Source of the DNA: an uncultured Clostridia bacterium
GTDB taxonomy: Bacteria > Bacillota > Clostridia > TANB77 > CAG-508
Direction: 5' to 3'
Assembly (NCBI GenBank): GCA_963558115.1
Contig: CAUWFY010000001.1
Location: forward strand, 1 to 29,430
DNA: 29,430 nt
Part shown: piece by piece, positions 15,378 to 27,495 of the stretch
Numbering within the stretch: the first letter of the stretch is position 1
Layout: each line of letters begins with the position of its first letter
Notes under the pieces: model-generated
The model's database searches: none
The model's input: only the letters and a program-made list of their open reading frames with translations
Told to the model about the DNA's origin: nothing
Translations under genes and position numbers: made by a program

Positions 15378-16829
15378 ATGACAAGAGAAAAAGGAATAAC
15401 TTTGATAGCACTAGTAATAACAATCGTAGTCTTATTAATATTAGCAGGAGTAAGTATAGCAATGCTAACAGGAGATAATGGAATAATAACTCAAGCGCAA
15501 AATGCAAAAGAAAGCACAGATAGTGCAGAAGAAAAAGAAGGTGTTGAACTAGCAGTAACAGCAGCTACAATAAAAGATAATGTGTATGGGAAAATAAATC
15601 AGAATAATCTACAAAATGAAATTGATAATCAGTTTGGAGCAGGAAAAGCAATCGCTAGAAATAATGGAGATGGAACTTTTACAGTTAGTTTTGCTGATAG
15701 TAAAAGGGATTACAATATTAATTCTAAGGGAGTAGAAACAGGAATAGATTGGAATACGGCAATGCAAAATGTAAAAGCTCCTGAAAGTCAAGATGAAGAA
15801 AGAAATAATGGTGTAATAGGAATTGGAACAGATGGAAAAGCAGTAGATATGGATTTATGGAAATATAATTTATTAGAAGATGATACATATTGCCTAGGAA
15901 AAATAGATGGATGGGAAACAGGTTATATAGGAGAATTTAATGAAGATGGAAGTATAATAGGAGAAGTACCACAATATATATCAATAGATGGCAAAAGTTT
16001 TAAACCTGTAACAACTATGGCTGCAACTTTTAGAAATTGTACTTCATTGAAGATTCAACCTAAAATACCAACTACAGTAACTAATTTAAGATATACTTTT
16101 TGGAATTGTGATAATTTAGTAAAATTAAATGAAATTCATAATGGAGTTATAACAATGGAAGGAATATATATGGATTGTGCTGCTATATCAGAAATTCCTA
16201 AATTACCTAATAGTGTTAAAATACTTACAAGTACTTTTAGTCAAACGAATATAAGTGTAGCACCTGAGATTCCAGATGGTGTTGAAATAATGATCAATAC
16301 TTTTGGAAATTGTGTGAATTTATTAGAAACACCATATATTCCAAATTCTGTAACAAATTTTAGTGCTACTTTTACGGGGTGCACAAATTTAAAAAAAGTA
16401 AAAAATATACCACAAAAAACTACAACATTATCTCACACTTTTTTTAAGTGTACTAGTTTAATATCAATACCAAACGAAATTCCAAATACTGTTAAGGATA
16501 TGCCATCAGCATTTCAGTTTACAGGATTAGAAATTGCACCAGATATACCAGATAGTGTAACAAATATGAGTAGTACATTTAGAGAGTGTAAAAATTTGAA
16601 AAAAGTAAATAAAATATCTGATAATGTAGAAGATATGCAATTTACTTTTTACAATTGTAATATATTGGAAGGAAATTTAGAAATTAATGCTAATCCTACT
16701 AATTATTTAGCTTGTTTCAATGGATGTTCAATAAATAGCACTAATAATTTAATATTAAAAGGAAATTCTAAGGTATTAACTGAATTATTAAATACAAAAT
16801 CAAGTAATTCTAAAATTATAATTGAATAA
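15378..16829 (+). CDS. Type IV pilin-like protein (class III signal peptide) with C-terminal BspA/TpLRR-type leucine-rich repeats
   Basis: MTREKG|ITLIALVITIVVLLILAGVSI prepilin-like N-terminus, followed by about ten ~22-23 aa repeats (TFxxCxxLxxxPxIPxxVxxM) from ~16026 to ~16730. Confidence 0.85.
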   Translation: MTREKGITLIALVITIVVLLILAGVSIAMLTGDNGIITQAQNAKESTDSAEEKEGVELAVTAATIKDNVYGKINQNNLQNEIDNQFGAGKAIARNNGDGTFTVSFADSKRDYNINSKGVETGIDWNTAMQNVKAPESQDEERNNGVIGIGTDGKAVDMDLWKYNLLEDDTYCLGKIDGWETGYIGEFNEDGSIIGEVPQYISIDGKSFKPVTTMAATFRNCTSLKIQPKIPTTVTNLRYTFWNCDNLVKLNEIHNGVITMEGIYMDCAAISEIPKLPNSVKILTSTFSQTNISVAPEIPDGVEIMINTFGNCVNLLETPYIPNSVTNFSATFTGCTNLKKVKNIPQKTTTLSHTFFKCTSLISIPNEIPNTVKDMPSAFQFTGLEIAPDIPDSVTNMSSTFRECKNLKKVNKISDNVEDMQFTFYNCNILEGNLEINANPTNYLACFNGCSINSTNNLILKGNSKVLTELLNTKSSNSKIIIE

Positions 16830-17164: not shown

Positions 17165-17281
17165 AGATAAAACATATAGATTTAATGTAAGGTTAGATGT
17201 TTAATAAATAAAAAATAATAATTATGATATATATAAATAGAACAAGGAAAAGTGTGTATAATAATAAAAAAGGAGAAAAAG

Positions 17282-18076
17282 ATGCAAGTAATTTCAAGTA
17301 AAGAAAATGAAATAATAAAAAATATAAAAAAACTAAAAGAGAAAAAATACAGAGATTTAAACAATGAATATATAATAGAAGGAATAAAAATAATCCAAGA
17401 AGCAATACAAGAAAATGCAAAAATAAAACAAATAATTATATGTGATGATTGTGAAAAAAATTCATATATCCCACAAGAACTGATGTATGAAATTGCAAAA
17501 TATGAATGTATATATGTAACAAATAAAATATTTACAAGTTTAACAGATGTGAAAAATCCACAAGGAATAATGGCGATAGTAGAAAAAAACAATTCAAAAG
17601 AAGAGGAAATTGATTATAATCAAGATATTATAGTAGCCTTAGATGACATTCAAGACCCGGGAAATCTAGGAACTATATTAAGAACAGTAGATAGTATAGG
17701 AATTAATCAAATATTAGTATCAAAAGGAACAGCTGATAGCTATAATCCAAAAGTAGTTCGTTCAACAATGGGAGCTATATTTAGAGTAAAAATAATAGAA
17801 TGTGAAGATTTAGAAAAAACACTAAAAGAAATAAAAAAACATAAATTTGAAATTTTAGTAACATCATTACAAACTGAAAATAGTATATATGACATTAAAT
17901 ACAATAAAAAGGTAATAGTAATAGGAAATGAAGCTAATGGAGTAGAAGAAAAAATACAAAATATGTCTGACATAAAAGCGAAAATACCAATGCTAGGAAA
18001 AACAGAAAGTTTAAATGCATCAGTAGCAACAGGAATAATATTATATGAATATGTTAGGCAAAAAATAAAGCATTAA
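17282..18076 (+). CDS. TrmH/SpoU-family RNA 2'-O-methyltransferase
   Basis: Start refined to MQVISSKEN (AAGGAG RBS). SPOUT motifs IQDPGNLGTILRT, VIGNEANGV, IPMLGKTESLNASVA. Confidence 0.92.
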   Translation: MQVISSKENEIIKNIKKLKEKKYRDLNNEYIIEGIKIIQEAIQENAKIKQIIICDDCEKNSYIPQELMYEIAKYECIYVTNKIFTSLTDVKNPQGIMAIVEKNNSKEEEIDYNQDIIVALDDIQDPGNLGTILRTVDSIGINQILVSKGTADSYNPKVVRSTMGAIFRVKIIECEDLEKTLKEIKKHKFEILVTSLQTENSIYDIKYNKKVIVIGNEANGVEEKIQNMSDIKAKIPMLGKTESLNASVATGIILYEYVRQKIKH

Positions 18077-18094
18077 TTGAAAGGAAATATAAAA

Positions 18095-18595
18095 ATGAAA
18101 ATAAATATTGTAATGGTAGAACCAGAAATACCACAAAATACAGGGAATATTGCAAGAACGTGTGCAATAACAGGAGCTAAATTGCACTTAGTTCATCCAC
18201 TAGGTTTTAAAATAGATGACAAGTCAATAAAAAGGGCTGGATTAGATTATTGGGACAAACTAGAAATAGAAGAACATAATTCATTAGAAGAATTTTTAAA
18301 TAAATATAAACCAGAAGAATATAATATGTTTTTTGCAACAACAAAAGGAAAAACAAAATATACAGATATAGATTACTCAAAAATGGAAGAAGTATTTGTA
18401 CTATATGGAAAAGAAACAAAAGGCTTACCAGAAGATTTATTAGAAAAATATTTAGATAAAAAAACAATAAGAATACCAATGCTTCCAACATTAAGGTCAT
18501 TAAATTTATCTAATTCAGTTGCTATAATTACATATGAAATATTAAGACAAAAGAATTTTGAAGACTTGCAAGAAATAAGCAATTATTTTGATTAA
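18095..18595 (+). CDS. trmL: tRNA (cytidine/uridine34-2'-O)-methyltransferase
   Basis: IVMVEPEIPQNTGNIARTC, RAGLDYW, YGKETKGLP, RSLNLSNSVAI. Start refined to ATG 18095. Confidence 0.93.
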   Translation: MKINIVMVEPEIPQNTGNIARTCAITGAKLHLVHPLGFKIDDKSIKRAGLDYWDKLEIEEHNSLEEFLNKYKPEEYNMFFATTKGKTKYTDIDYSKMEEVFVLYGKETKGLPEDLLEKYLDKKTIRIPMLPTLRSLNLSNSVAIITYEILRQKNFEDLQEISNYFD

Positions 18596-20680: not shown

Positions 20681-20801
20681 AATAGGAAGTTCTTACCTAA
20701 AAAGGAACGATTTAAAATTAGGTAAAGTTCAAGCCTTATAAATGAACTGATTTGAAATTAGGTAATGCTTAAGCCTTATAAATAAGCAGTTTTAAAATAG
20801 G
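20681..20801 (+). repeat. Tandem antitoxin repeats: unit A 20681-20715 (~35-36 nt), B 20716-20755 and C 20756-20795 (40 nt each), plus partial AATAGG
   Basis: B and C share AATTAGGTAA...AAGCCTTATAAAT. A is a shorter variant, AATAGGAAGTTCTTACCTAAAAAGGAAC. Confidence 0.88.
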
Positions 20802-20836
20802 GGGTACATTTGAAAAAAGTGTACTCCTTATGTTTT
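20798..20836 (+). terminator. Internal terminator between toxI repeats and toxN
   Basis: TAGGGGGTACATTT-GAAAA-AAGTGTACTCCTTA stem (with G-U pairs) followed by TGTTTT. Confidence 0.8.
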
Positions 20837-20854
20837 ATAAAGAAATGAGGAAAA

Positions 20855-21355
20855 ATGGAAGAATTATTATTTTATACAGTTGATAAAAACTATATTAAAT
20901 ATTTAAGTGAATTTGAAAGCCATGTAAGTTATAATAAAGATGAAATTGGACATAGTAGACCATATTTAGGAATTGTATTAATAATAGCAAATTATGAATA
21001 TTTTGTACCATTATATTCATATAAAGAACATTATAAAAAATACAAAAACAATCCTAGTTTTTTCTTTGTGTATGATAGAAAAAATAATCCATTAGCAATT
21101 ATTAAGTTTTCAGCTATGATACCAGTTCCAAATAATTTAAATGTAACATCAGTATTAGAATATAATAGGCGAGATAAAAAATATAAAGATTTAATATCAG
21201 CAGAATATAGATATATAAATTCTAATAAAGAGGAAATATATAAAAGAGCAAATAAAATGTATGTTGCAGTAACAAAACATAAAAATAATTTTTTAAAAAC
21301 AATAGCTTGTAATTTTACATTATTAGAGAAAAAATGTGTTGAATATAATAAATAA
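20855..21355 (+). CDS. toxN: Type III toxin-antitoxin endoribonuclease, ToxN/AbiQ family
   Basis: FYTVDKNYIKYL...RPYLGIVL...YFVPLYS.K...MIPVP...Y..L...EY...I...A.KMY...FTLLEKKC.EY matches the ToxN/AbiQ pattern; canonical locus architecture. Confidence 0.9.
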   Translation: MEELLFYTVDKNYIKYLSEFESHVSYNKDEIGHSRPYLGIVLIIANYEYFVPLYSYKEHYKKYKNNPSFFFVYDRKNNPLAIIKFSAMIPVPNNLNVTSVLEYNRRDKKYKDLISAEYRYINSNKEEIYKRANKMYVAVTKHKNNFLKTIACNFTLLEKKCVEYNK

Positions 21356-24904: not shown

Positions 24905-24954
24905 AATTTACCTCCTTTAAATTATATATATTATTATCATTTTTTACCGATAAT

Positions 24955-24983
24955 ATAATAACATAGTAGAAAAATATTATCAA
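24955..24983 (-). promoter_or_regulatory. sigmaA-type promoter of pflB (extended -10)
   Basis: TTGATA-17 bp-TATTAT with TGn extension, minus strand. Confidence 0.55.
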
Positions 24984-25053
24984 TAAAATAATACACATAA
25001 TTTTAGAAAAGTGATGTTGTATTTGCAACAAATTAGAGAAAATTAGCAAAATA

Positions 25054-25082
25054 TTGAAAATGGTTGGAAAACATAGTATAAT
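25054..25082 (+). promoter_or_regulatory. sigmaA-type promoter of the repeat-protein gene
   Basis: TTGAAA-17 bp-TATAAT; AAAGGAGG RBS before ATG 25160. Confidence 0.65.
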
Positions 25083-25159
25083 ATATTATGTAAAACTGTA
25101 GCAACGGAACATCTTTTATAGAAGGTTTCGGTTAATAAAAAAAGGAGGATCATATTATA

Positions 25160-27049
25160 ATGGCAAAAGCAAGAAAACTTCGGAGTTTAGAGGAGATTAA
25201 AGAAGTTAGTAGAACAGTATACACATATAGCGAATTAGCTGAAAAATTAGGTATTACCTGTATGACATTATTTTCTTGGTTAGAAATGTATTATTCAAAA
25301 GACAGAAATGATATTAAATCAACATTAAAAGCAAATAGAGAAAAGAGAGAAAAAGAGGAAAATATACAAAAATTAAAAGATTTAAAACTTGTGAGTCAAA
25401 AAAGTAGTTCTTTTAAAGAATTAGAATTAAAAACAGGAATCAGCAATCCAAAAAAATGGATTTGTGAAAACTTTCCAGAAGAAATAAGCATAATTAAAAC
25501 TAATCTAAAAGCTAATAGAAGAAACAGAGAAAATAAAGAACAATACAAAGTTATTTCTCAAAAAATGGAAGAAATTAAAGAAATAAGCAAAGAAGTATAT
25601 TCTTTTAAAGAACTAACAGCGAGAGTAGGAATAAAATATTTATCTGAAAACTTATCGATATATTTTCCAAAGGAAAAAAATGAAATTAAGTCTAATCTCG
25701 CAGCAAATAGAGAAAAGAGAGATAACGAAGAAATGAAACAAAAACGAGAAAAAGATTTAATAACTTTGGAAAAAGTTAAAGATTTAAGCAAGGTAGTATC
25801 CACTTTCAAAGAACTATCAGAAGGAATGGGCATATCAAGTATTAATAATTGGTTAGATAAAAATTTTCCAGAAGAAAGGCTTGAAATTGAAGCTAACTTA
25901 AAAGCAAACCAAAAAAAAGGAGATAATGAAAACAATAGGCATAAGCAAAATAAAAATTTAATAATATTGGAGATAGTCAAAGAAATAAGCTTGAGAGTAT
26001 CTACTTTTAAAGAGATATCAGAAGAAGTAGGGATATCTAATATTAGTAGTTGGCTAACACAAAATTTTCCAGAAGAAAAAGCTGAAATTAGAGCTAATTT
26101 AGCAGTAAAAAAAGAAGAAAAAGATAATGAAAGAAAGAGACAGAAACAAAATGAAAATTTAATACGATTGGAAAAAGCCAAAAAAATAAGTATGAGAGTA
26201 TCTACCATTAATGAGCTATCACAAGAAATAGGAGTATCAGGTATTAGCAAATGGTTAGAACAAAATTTTCCAGAAGAAAAAGAGGAAATTAAAGCTAATT
26301 TAGACTATAATCGACAAAAAAAGAAAAAAGCAAGTGAAAATCAAAGCGATATTGAAAAAATAGAAAGGATTAAAGAAATAAGTCAAAGAGTATGTGATTG
26401 CAGAGAACTAGCAAAAGAAATGCACGAAGAAAGCCATAACATAGATACTTTTTTAAAAAAATTTCCAGAAACAAATGAAGAAATTAAGGCAAACATAAAA
26501 GCTAATAGGTTGAAGGAAAAGGAGAAAATAGAACGAGAGTATTTAGAGCTGGCAAGAAAAGCAAGTAAGAGAGCTTATAGTGTTACAGAAATAGCTGAAG
26601 AAATAAAAATAAATGTAACATCTTTAAGTAATTCTTTAAAAAAATTTCCTGAGATAAAGGAAGAAGTTCAAAACAACATAACCACTAATAAAGCTGAAAA
26701 AAATAAATTTGAATTAGATGAAATTGAGTTAAGGGAAAATCATATGATTTTTCATACTAGGGATAATTCAATAGCAGAAGTTTGGAGATTTTATCATACT
26801 TCTCCACTTAGTTTCCTAAAACAAAATCAAGAAATAGAAATAGAAAAAGGCGATTATATATTAGTGGCACAATATGATCCAATTACTAATTGTATTATTC
26901 TTATGGGATTTGAAATCTATCTTGAAAACTCAAAGATAGTTAAAGTAAAATATAGAAAAGTACAAGATGATATGAGAATTTACCATAATGAAAAAATACA
27001 AAATTTTGCCGATAAAGCAAAGGAAATATTAGGTTCTAAAATTAAATAA
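25160..27049 (+). CDS. Hypothetical protein with eight tandem ~61-67 aa HTH-like repeats and a ~105-aa C-terminal domain
   Basis: Repeat consensus LExIKEISxxVSTFKELSExxGISxIxxWLxxNFPEEKxEIKANLxANRxK. Units 4-6 start at 25766, 25967 and 26168 (201-bp period). Confidence 0.8.
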   Translation: MAKARKLRSLEEIKEVSRTVYTYSELAEKLGITCMTLFSWLEMYYSKDRNDIKSTLKANREKREKEENIQKLKDLKLVSQKSSSFKELELKTGISNPKKWICENFPEEISIIKTNLKANRRNRENKEQYKVISQKMEEIKEISKEVYSFKELTARVGIKYLSENLSIYFPKEKNEIKSNLAANREKRDNEEMKQKREKDLITLEKVKDLSKVVSTFKELSEGMGISSINNWLDKNFPEERLEIEANLKANQKKGDNENNRHKQNKNLIILEIVKEISLRVSTFKEISEEVGISNISSWLTQNFPEEKAEIRANLAVKKEEKDNERKRQKQNENLIRLEKAKKISMRVSTINELSQEIGVSGISKWLEQNFPEEKEEIKANLDYNRQKKKKASENQSDIEKIERIKEISQRVCDCRELAKEMHEESHNIDTFLKKFPETNEEIKANIKANRLKEKEKIEREYLELARKASKRAYSVTEIAEEIKINVTSLSNSLKKFPEIKEEVQNNITTNKAEKNKFELDEIELRENHMIFHTRDNSIAEVWRFYHTSPLSFLKQNQEIEIEKGDYILVAQYDPITNCIILMGFEIYLENSKIVKVKYRKVQDDMRIYHNEKIQNFADKAKEILGSKIK

Positions 27050-27064
27050 TTTCAGAAACCTAAA

Positions 27065-27104
27065 AAAGAGAATCCAATTCATAGACTTGAATTGGATTTT
27101 CTTT
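27065..27104. terminator. Bidirectional intrinsic terminator
   Basis: 17-bp stem AAAGAGAATCCAATTCA / TGAATTGGATTTTCTTT (one G-U) between convergent genes. Confidence 0.8.
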
Positions 27105-27168
27105 ATGTTGAATAGTATCTAAAGTATTCAAGTATTTCTGATAATAAGATGAATAATCTTCTAAATAT

Positions 27169-27495
27169 TTATTCAGCTTCAGCAATTATTTTAGCAACTT
27201 TATAAATTAATCTTTGCTTATCAGCAGAACAACTTTTTATTAAATCATTAAATTCTTGTGTTAAATAATTTTTAGAGTCACTAGAAGCACCATTTAAAAT
27301 ATAACCTTCTGAAACATCTAACAAATTGCATATTTGATGTAATCTTTTTAAGTTTATATGTGAGCTACCTCTTTCAACTCTACTTAAAAAAGCTATAGAA
27401 ACATCTAATATTTCGGACAACTCATCTTGAGTATAATTTTTAGCAAGTCTTGCTTGTCTTATTCTTTGACCTATTATTGTATAATCAAGTCCCAT
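27169..27495 (-). CDS. XRE-family helix-turn-helix regulator (108 aa)
   Basis: IGQRIRQARLAKNYTQDELSEILDVSIAFLSRVERG...LDVSEGYIL; GGAAGGTG RBS. Confidence 0.9.
   Translation of the reverse strand: MGLDYTIIGQRIRQARLAKNYTQDELSEILDVSIAFLSRVERGSSHINLKRLHQICNLLDVSEGYILNGASSDSKNYLTQEFNDLIKSCSADKQRLIYKVAKIIAEAE

Follow-up and report, generated by a model that had tools for sequence, protein, structure and literature searches.

A protein of eight tandem HTH-like units from an uncultured Clostridia bacterium, a PIN-less offshoot of a rare HTH-PIN_4 family

The nearest functional analogy to the family of the protein described here comes from proteins that combine a nuclease of the PIN superfamily with helix-turn-helix (HTH) type modules. 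In passages from PMC5499597, PIN-(OST-HTH) is a predicted substrate-recruiting architecture. In passages from PMC6217404, MARF1 consists of an NYN domain and eight LOTUS repeats, and the repeats bind both single-stranded and double-stranded RNA and are needed for cleavage. Here we describe P0001, a 629-amino-acid protein encoded at 25160..27049 of a 29,430-nucleotide stretch of DNA from an uncultured Clostridia bacterium (assembly GCA_963558115.1, contig CAUWFY010000001.1, positions 1 to 29,430; we call this whole stretch the window). MARF1 and the bacterial NYN-(OST-HTH/LOTUS) proteins, as far as those passages describe them, resemble the relatives of the window protein (the HTH-PIN_4 family) in joining a PIN-superfamily nuclease to HTH-type modules. 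By the same account, MARF1 has eight modules, as the window protein does, but MARF1 keeps its nuclease and the window protein is without one. LOTUS is a winged helix of a different sequence, and the units of the window protein are all-helical in our model; we regard the likeness as an analogy and not as demonstrated homology. The OST-HTH/LOTUS family (PF12872) was absent from the Pfam matches (E up to 1 for the whole protein and up to 10 for each unit), with search filters that may hide very weak matches.

To our knowledge, bacterial HTH proteins almost always have no more than two HTH motifs and increase their valency through oligomerization. The DNA-binding domain of the AraC/XylS type resembles the window array in that consecutive HTH motifs are joined through one long helix, but it has two motifs instead of eight. 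The C-terminal domains of AraT and YesN gave weak local rows in Foldseek (E = 2.0-4.3), and no Pfam AraC family matched the whole protein or any single unit. In SpoIIID, a small HTH precedes a helix and then a basic region, which aids DNA binding, and the SpoIIID structure (2L0K) matches a unit with Z = 5.1 over 56 residues at 18% identity. The SpoIIID model (PF12116) matches contigs C153 and C3 of the host genome, but not the region of the gene (C1:25160-27046). The HTH of IS3-type transposases (HTH_Tnp_1), HTH_23, HTH_28, and Sigma70_r4_2 share with the units the likeness of a simple three-helix HTH; the window protein has no transposase catalytic domain. Among the full-text articles listed for tandem HTH arrays, we saw no bacterial parallel, a weak indication that none has been published. 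In those listings, we also found no described parallel for one chain that carries eight diverged HTH-like modules on what appear to be rigid charged helices.

It is well supported that the window protein is a PIN-less offshoot of a rare, uncharacterized family from Clostridia, whose members have an HTH-like unit, a PIN_4 domain, and a C-terminal domain. The window protein itself consists of eight tandem units of 61-69 amino acids and a C-terminal domain of 108 amino acids:

25160..27049, plus strand: coding sequence of P0001 (629 amino acids), the only long frame at that place
25160..25366, plus strand: unit 1 (amino acids 1-69), canonical HTH spacing, net charge +3
25367..25555, plus strand: unit 2 (amino acids 70-132), helix 3 two residues shorter, net charge +7
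25556..25756, plus strand: unit 3 (amino acids 133-199), net charge +2
25757..25957, plus strand: unit 4 (amino acids 200-266), inside the 201-bp periodic core
25958..26158, plus strand: unit 5 (amino acids 267-333), rear half absent from the seven-unit variant
26159..26356, plus strand: unit 6 (amino acids 334-399), front half absent from the seven-unit variant
26357..26539, plus strand: unit 7 (amino acids 400-460), turn without Gly
26540..26722, plus strand: unit 8 (amino acids 461-521), lines up with the first unit in relatives that have a PIN domain
26723..27046, plus strand: C-terminal beta-rich domain and terminal helix (amino acids 522-629), common to the window protein and its relatives

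Nothing supports an antisense frame at 25558-26250 (230 amino acids), which most likely just reflects a coding strand that is repetitive and rich in purines.

All eight units line up in register, with pairwise identities of 19-58%. Also, a profile (A8) that was built only from proteins of other genomes matches five of the eight units (E = 1e-7 to 4e-4), so the units are more than a chance pattern. An initial annotation of this DNA, made from the sequence alone, had proposed eight tandem units, which these results confirm, and the variable segments that it quoted are present exactly as written. Its unit length of 61-67 amino acids holds for most of the units, but unit 1 reaches 69 because of an N-terminal extension.

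The units appear to have multiplied within the gene. Tandem Repeats Finder reports a period of 201 bases at 25662-26303 (3.2 copies, 74% matches, 0% indels, score 680), and a repeat search found three copies at spacings of 201 and 201 bases, in agreement with the period that was first noticed. The DNA identity between the copies is only 71-75%, which suggests that the duplications are old and have been kept. Among the close orthologues are 629-amino-acid forms (95-99% identity), a 562-amino-acid form, and truncated copies of both. The shorter form lacks exactly residues 302-368 (67 amino acids, in register), so that the front of unit 5 is fused to the rear of unit 6. Thus, the number of units is polymorphic, at eight or seven; this is also the variation in repeat number that the initial annotation proposed to look for in homologs. 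Within the four sequencing runs that we examined, no contig skipped 201 bases. The 201-bp period and a variant that is short of exactly 67 amino acids both support growth by intragenic duplication.

Relatives outside the species are few. We used HMMER to search 1.84 billion representative proteins (E ≤ 1e-3) and found six proteins: the protein's own cluster, four distant relatives (P0008, P0010, P0011, and P0012; phmmer E = 4.9e-13 to 7.5e-5), and a spurious hit. The spurious hit, P0009 (1600 amino acids, E = 2.7e-9), looks like a eukaryotic repeat protein, and the only stretch in common is "FPKTKKEI", so we disregarded it. Word-index searches returned at least 6, at least 4, and at least 12 proteins, all from the same few clusters. 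The four distant relatives have one or two copies of the window's unit at the N-terminus, then a central domain, and then a homologous C-terminal domain. When we ran a profile of the unit over 151 genomes of the order, we found four further open reading frames (ORFs) of 311-338 amino acids with this same plan (L027, L028, L029, and L031).

Another match to the unit profile, at L030 (1501-1623 of G469:C1, E = 2e-5), is to the C-terminal end of an McsB-like ORF, and we took it to be spurious; the matching region reads like helix 2, a turn, and helix 3, with a "FSKEEENIK" stretch. At L029 (G466:C17, 239-2469), the family member of 338 amino acids directly follows a fragment of a ClpC-like ATPase gene. 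In Bacillus, the PIN/TRAM gene yacL is in the clpC region.

Several results point to a PIN domain in the center of these relatives. PIN_4 (PF13638) matches the L029 ORF with 22.0 bits (the cut-off is 21.9) and another of the ORFs of 311-338 amino acids with 20.2 bits. For the central part of P0012, the nearest ESM features were those of PIN clusters (score 0.90, 163 shared features), which we treat as a lead only, and P0011 matched the Pfam family DUF5615 at E = 0.01. The two groups of relatives are collinear over 324 columns (hhalign of A8 against A1: probability 99.5%, E = 1e-22). The first PIN motif has an invariant Asp in the group of 311-338 amino acids, and at the aligned column the nearer group (A1) has an invariant His. 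The relatives also have Pfam HTH matches, to HTH_23 (E = 0.0026) and Sigma70_r4_2 (E = 0.0066), which are below the curated cut-offs. Their best match in NCBIfam was no better than E = 0.0017.

The window protein shows both traits of this family: an N-terminal unit with FPxE and NLxxNR, and the C-terminal domain. In an alignment with the relatives (A2), unit 8 and the C-terminal domain match the two ends of the relatives, and the PIN part is one gap. We found no PIN domain in the window protein, as there is no Pfam PIN match and unit 8 abuts the C-terminal domain. A search of the host genome (91.8% complete) with the A8 profile did not find a PIN-bearing paralogue either. Overall, the HTH-PIN_4-C-terminal-domain proteins (P0008, P0010-P0013, L027, L028, L029, and L031) match the window protein in the FP(E/K)E and NLxxNR of the unit and in the domain order, but they have one or two units and a central PIN-like domain, while the window protein has eight units and is PIN-less. 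The simplest history is that the PIN domain was lost and the unit was amplified to eight, in either order. If so, the case shows how such an array can originate: a member of a rare family of HTH-PIN nucleases would have dropped the nuclease but retained its putative substrate-binding unit and multiplied it.

The protein was initially described as an orphan. It is rare and belongs to no curated family, but because distant HTH-PIN_4 relatives exist, "orphan" is only partly right. It was also initially said that no family could be assigned, and indeed no curated family in Pfam or NCBIfam contains the protein: the best NCBIfam match was E = 0.039. PHROGs gave weak rows only (best E = 1.1e-4), PADLOC matched the gene only to mad1 (E = 2.9e-4, 19.1 bits, over 25 residues), and searches of PDB sequences with profiles A1 and A7 gave best E values of 0.73 and 0.13. 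The initial annotation would have been overturned by a match to an already characterized family, but the family that we found is itself uncharacterized. We think that it merits its own name, whatever the window protein turns out to do.

The C-terminal domain matches its counterpart in the relatives (phmmer, query residues 496-624, E = 8.3e-6 to 7.5e-5), and the C-terminal alignment (A5) has 14 invariant columns. A distinct beta-rich domain of about 105 amino acids had been noticed at the outset; we confirmed it, at 108 amino acids, and the AlphaFold2 model has seven strands and a terminal helix, with a pLDDT of only 45-73. Among the best 26 VIA-align rows for this domain, eight are polo boxes (Z = 5.0-6.5), but these come from a low-pLDDT model and lie in a common range of Z. 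The ESM Atlas gave no usable feature match for the domain, and the structural TM was at most 0.46. In one 494-amino-acid frame (L038; G447:C28:5654-7033), the family's C-terminal domain is present twice, and in G570:C44, a 145-amino-acid frame that is the C-terminal domain alone adjoins a full-length family member. These doubled and solo domains suggest that the family duplicates its other end too.

To examine the fold of the units, we used AlphaFold2 to model unit 8 with the C-terminal domain (from an alignment of five relatives) and also the full-length protein (from an alignment of orthologues only). Two other alignments were not used for folding: in A3, which was made of shifted three-unit blocks, MAFFT matched identical overlaps instead, and A4, which combined the full-length protein with relatives, put the PIN domain over units 5-6. 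In the first model, unit 8 has helices at 2-9, 15-22, 26-34, and 37-54 (numbered within the piece), with a pLDDT of 91-95. The full-length model has a mean pLDDT of 75.9 and a pTM of 0.28, and across residues 11-510, the 10-residue blocks have a pLDDT of 72-92, except for 251-260 (55). In this model, each of the eight units has a helix 2 of 7-8 residues, a turn of 3-4 residues, and a helix 3 of 8-11 residues, and a long connecting helix of 34-41 residues continues into helix 1 of the next unit.

The canonical HTH pattern has hydrophobic residues at positions 4, 8, 10, 15, and 18, alanine at position 5, and glycine at position 9. Unit 1 fits this pattern fully, and the glycine of the turn is kept in six of the eight units. 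Pfam matches the whole protein to HTH_10 (24.2 bits, cut-off 23.1) and HTH_24 (23.0 bits, cut-off 21.9); these scores are sums over the repeats, with no single stretch above the cut-off. The best match of a single unit is from unit 1 to HTH_Tnp_1 (E = 2.1e-4, 21.9 bits, cut-off 24.1), and it covers positions 16-66 of the 75 in the profile, which correspond to the HTH and the next helix. Both the units and the relatives repeatedly give subthreshold matches to HTH families of Pfam. The structural neighbors of the unit, as found by VIA-align, are mostly DNA-binding three-helix domains: SANT2 of CoREST (Z = 5.5), SpoIIID with DNA (Z = 5.1), XylR, AdpA, and Ada, which are AraC-type (Z = 4.7-5.1), and the small terminase of Sf6 (Z = 4.9). 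Another neighbor is the helical domain of RepB (Z = 5.6). The best Foldseek row in BFVD was only E = 2.1e-3. These predicted structures and sequence patterns support, but do not prove, that the units are HTH-like. As for the HTH signature that was claimed initially, the perfect pattern in unit 1 and the helix-turn-helix in all eight modelled units agree with it, but there is no significant match to a family.

We consider it about an even bet that the protein is a multivalent binder of nucleic acids. RNA seems as likely a ligand as DNA, because the unit lies beside a PIN nuclease in the relatives and because of the analogy to NYN-(OST-HTH) proteins and MARF1. Contact with the nucleic acid would be made by helix 3 of each module and by the conserved FPEE/NLxANRxK sequence with which the long helix begins, the charged long helices would space the modules, and the C-terminal domain might mediate oligomerization or bind a partner or a substrate. 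In the relatives, the unit is placed as a module that recruits substrate to a PIN nuclease would be. Across the units and the relatives, conservation is highest at the FP(E/K)E turn and where the long helix begins with NLxANR(x)K, not in helix 3. The N and R/K of NLxANR rank among the most conserved positions of the units and of each of the two groups of relatives. The first 70 residues have a net charge of +7 to +11 in four of the five relatives. If the modules do bind nucleic acids, then the protein could become a model system for recognition that is multivalent or spans a long site, and it could supply small, stable HTH modules.

A number of observations weigh against this proposal. Taken singly, no unit is above a Pfam cut-off, and no Pfam family matches any of units 2-6 even at E up to 10. 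In those units, helix 3 is two residues shorter than in the canonical form, in units 1, 7, and 8, and in the relatives. All of the structural matches to the unit are at Z = 4.7-5.6, a range that the method rates as common. The initial annotation had proposed AlphaFold and Foldseek as a check; a helix-turn-helix was modelled in all eight units, but neither model gave a Foldseek row against the PDB at E ≤ 1e-3. With a pTM of 0.28, the mutual arrangement of the units is not fixed by the model. The fold of the C-terminal domain is poorly predicted, and its proposed homology to the group of 311-338 amino acids depends on an hhalign comparison of A5 (which includes the window's domain) to A8 with E = 1.7e-4 and 49% probability. 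The whole protein has a net charge of only +13 (pI 9.0), and units 1-8 have net charges of +3, +7, +2, +1, -1, +1, 0, and 0, so units 4-8 are all between -1 and +1. Helix 3 has a net charge of -1 to +2, with almost no Lys or Arg. Near-neutral units with a non-basic helix 3 weaken a simple DNA-binding reading for units 4-8. RNA-library contigs over the gene, which we describe below, may derive from contaminating DNA. Finally, the dN/dS of the gene is tenfold that of its neighbor pflB, which implies relaxed constraint.

The electrically neutral units 4-8 and the non-basic helix 3 would also fit a scaffold or spacer that binds proteins. The HTH-like bundles would then mediate contacts between proteins, a role that some SANT, LOTUS, and sigma region 4 domains have, and the charged helices would be rigid spacers, so that the array holds several copies of a partner or keeps the C-terminal domain at a distance. 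Charged residues make up 39-54% of the connecting helices and hydrophobic residues 17-26%, a composition that we take to resemble that of single helices of the ER/K type. Among the closest structural rows for the unit, SANT2 of CoREST and the helical domain of RepB make protein contacts, and the passages from PMC6217404 describe a LOTUS domain, that of Oskar, that binds a helicase and not RNA. However, no partner gene travels with this one: it is the only gene in its insert, and the relatives have no neighbors in common. Furthermore, the unit is fused to a nuclease domain in the family, which favors a role with nucleic acids, and the conserved N/R motif behind the HTH is basic. We think that a scaffold is unlikely; if the modules do not bind nucleic acids, the protein would illustrate the reuse of the HTH fold as a scaffold.

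We then considered how the units vary. Between units, helix 3 is the most variable helix, with a mean entropy of 1.93 bits, versus 1.58 for helix 2, 1.38 for helix 1, and 1.32 for helix 4; the unstructured tail of the unit is at 1.97 bits. Between strains, we compared eight orthologous sequences, after dropping the last three residues of P0006 (at a contig end) and counting a variable site at position 270, which is an artefact of the start codon of P0014. Of 521 repeat positions, 57 vary between strains. For helix 3 it is 3 of 68, lower than in any other helix though not significantly so (Fisher p = 0.09); for the C-terminal domain it is 5 of 105. A helix 3 that differs in each unit and yet is kept between strains is what unit-specific function would give, although the numbers are small. 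The initial description of a hypervariable recognition helix was overstated, as helix 3 is about as variable as the tail between units and is the least variable helix between strains.

This combination, together with the regular spacing of the units by long helices and the polymorphic number of units, is what one might expect of a coded modular reader similar to TALE, PUF, or PPR proteins. In such a reader, helix 3 of each unit would read its own sub-site within one long composite site in DNA or RNA, and specificity would evolve by duplication of units and changes to helix 3. However, helix 3 is only as variable as the tail, with its differences spread out instead of lying at fixed code positions, and it is nearly devoid of basic residues. 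The spacer helices of 34-41 residues fit no regular register of DNA or RNA that we could derive, and the model, with its low pTM, has no superhelical solenoid of the kind in coded repeat proteins. Also, the low identity between units extends throughout them, with no constant scaffold that carries a few variable residues; the near-constant scaffold and regular solenoid of TALE, PUF, and PPR type repeats are both lacking. A coded reader is therefore very unlikely, in our judgment. It is likewise a long shot that the eight modules read a long composite target with an array that evolved, by unit duplication, from the targeting arm of a PIN nuclease. If true, this would be a bacterial, HTH-based counterpart of TALE and PUF arrays and of the LOTUS array of MARF1.

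To ask if the gene is under selection, we compared it to L005, a metagenome locus that has the same gene at the same place. The two copies of the gene differ by 14 synonymous and 32 nonsynonymous codon changes, versus 62 and 10 in pflB (Fisher p = 8e-10) and 7 and 0 in the XRE gene on the other side. The corresponding values of dN/dS are 0.52 for the gene and 0.50 for its repeats, compared to 0.05 for pflB and 0 for the XRE gene. These values could indicate a decaying remnant, which lost its function along with the PIN domain and is drifting, with repeats that arose from slippage or unequal crossing-over in A-rich DNA. A possible presence/absence polymorphism (from one 197-base contig, see below) and the restriction to one species among those searched would fit as well. 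On the other hand, the full-length copies (P0002-P0004 and L005, 95-99% identity) all keep an open frame of 629 codons, and the sole indel, the exact loss of 67 amino acids, is in frame and in register. Although elevated, dN/dS is still well under 1, and the least changed parts of the protein are helix 3 and the C-terminal domain. The 71-75% DNA identity of the units indicates duplications that are old and kept, and the gene has strong promoter, ribosome-binding, and terminator signals and is covered by contigs from RNA libraries. We consider it quite unlikely that the gene is a remnant, and we still favor a multivalent binder of nucleic acids.

A separate observation is that dS relative to L005 is 0.04-0.05 for the gene, which is about a third of the values for pflB (0.15) and the XRE gene (0.12), and that the 108-codon tail domain has zero synonymous changes. 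A recent sweep, a transfer of the insert between strains, or limits from codons for a protein rich in Lys, Glu, and Asn are possible explanations for the low dS.

That 25160..27049 is a real, species-specific accessory gene is well supported. The features around it are:

25034..27162: species-specific insert of about 2.1-2.2 kb with the gene, promoter, and terminator, between pflB and the XRE gene
25054..25082, plus strand: promoter-like site TTGAAA-17-TATAAT, 11 of 12 consensus matches
25141..25149, plus strand: ribosome-binding site AAAGGAGGA, 10 nucleotides upstream of the ATG, read from the sequence
27065..27104: bidirectional terminator-like hairpin with 17-bp arms, T-rich on both strands, common to the convergent XRE gene

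All three of the expression signals that were noticed initially are present, although the terminator is not the gene's alone. Across the region, promoter-like sites are not enriched as a class (17 versus 16.6 expected). The position between pflB and an XRE gene is confirmed by the Pfam matches of both neighbors (PFL-like, E = 6e-221; XRE-type HTH_3, E = 3.6e-13).

The stretch is represented in 20 listed sequencing runs (11 studies), of which three are recorded as RNA. The runs with a legible organism field are gut, faecal, bovine, or canine metagenomes. In RNA run X18, a single contig of 1726 bases spans 25090-26814, with 52 differences, and in RNA run X15, five contigs cover 25107-26880 piecewise. 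The X18 contig starts 8 nucleotides downstream of the -10 hexamer, which is a weak hint, as contigs cannot prove a transcript start. We take these contigs as only a hint of expression, and we drew no evidence from flanks that the RNA runs leave uncovered.

The insert is absent from related species. Five other species of the genus have pflA, pflB, the XRE gene, and M23 in the same order, but without the window gene, and their gaps between pflB and the XRE gene are 154-1790 bp. DNA homology to these five species stops at 24918-24984 and restarts at 27166-27177. In DNA run X1, a 197-base contig links 25033 to 27163 and skips 2129 bases (depth 19.3, versus 26.2 for the gene-bearing contig); it may be from a strain or near relative that lacks the gene. 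At the borders of the insert, we saw no terminal inverted repeat and no target duplication. In scans of sequence collections, there was one locus in genome contigs and one in metagenome contigs, and none in viral contigs, phages, or plasmids. Because there are no viral, phage, or plasmid matches and no terminal repeats, we do not call the insert a mobile element.

Conservation of the XRE gene, which is outside the insert, extends to 23 of 30 other genomes in the genus. In contrast, the full window protein matches just 1 of 24 other genomes of the genus. The A8 profile matches 7 of 36 other genomes of the genus, as well as one genome each in family f3 (of 7) and family f4 (of 4), and among 400 scored genomes of the class, the C-terminal profile (A5) found this genome only (0 of 399 others). 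The HTH-PIN_4-C-terminal-domain family is patchily distributed.

The space between pflB and the XRE gene is a hot spot for accessory genes. It is variable in the genus (24905-27168 in the window, 4208-5997 in L020, and 6321-7097 in L022), and in three species it is empty (154-341 bp). Elsewhere, it contains two unrelated ORFs of 367 and 145 amino acids (in G019) or an XRE-like ORF of 63 amino acids (in G006).

Other genes in the window include a toxin gene of the ToxN/AbiQ type at 20855-21355 (Pfam ToxN_toxin, E = 5.9e-43; PADLOC AbiQ, E = 3.7e-41). Just upstream, at 20701-20798, is a 40-nucleotide tandem repeat with 2.5 copies, and together the two (20701-21355) are arranged as in a type III toxin-antitoxin pair, whose antitoxin is an RNA. 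At 17252-18595, two adjacent genes encode SpoU-type RNA methyltransferases (274 and 172 amino acids) and are followed by a gene for an S1-domain protein. Finally, 15378-16829 encodes a 483-amino-acid protein with leucine-rich repeats of the BspA type (LRR_5, E = 4.4e-12).

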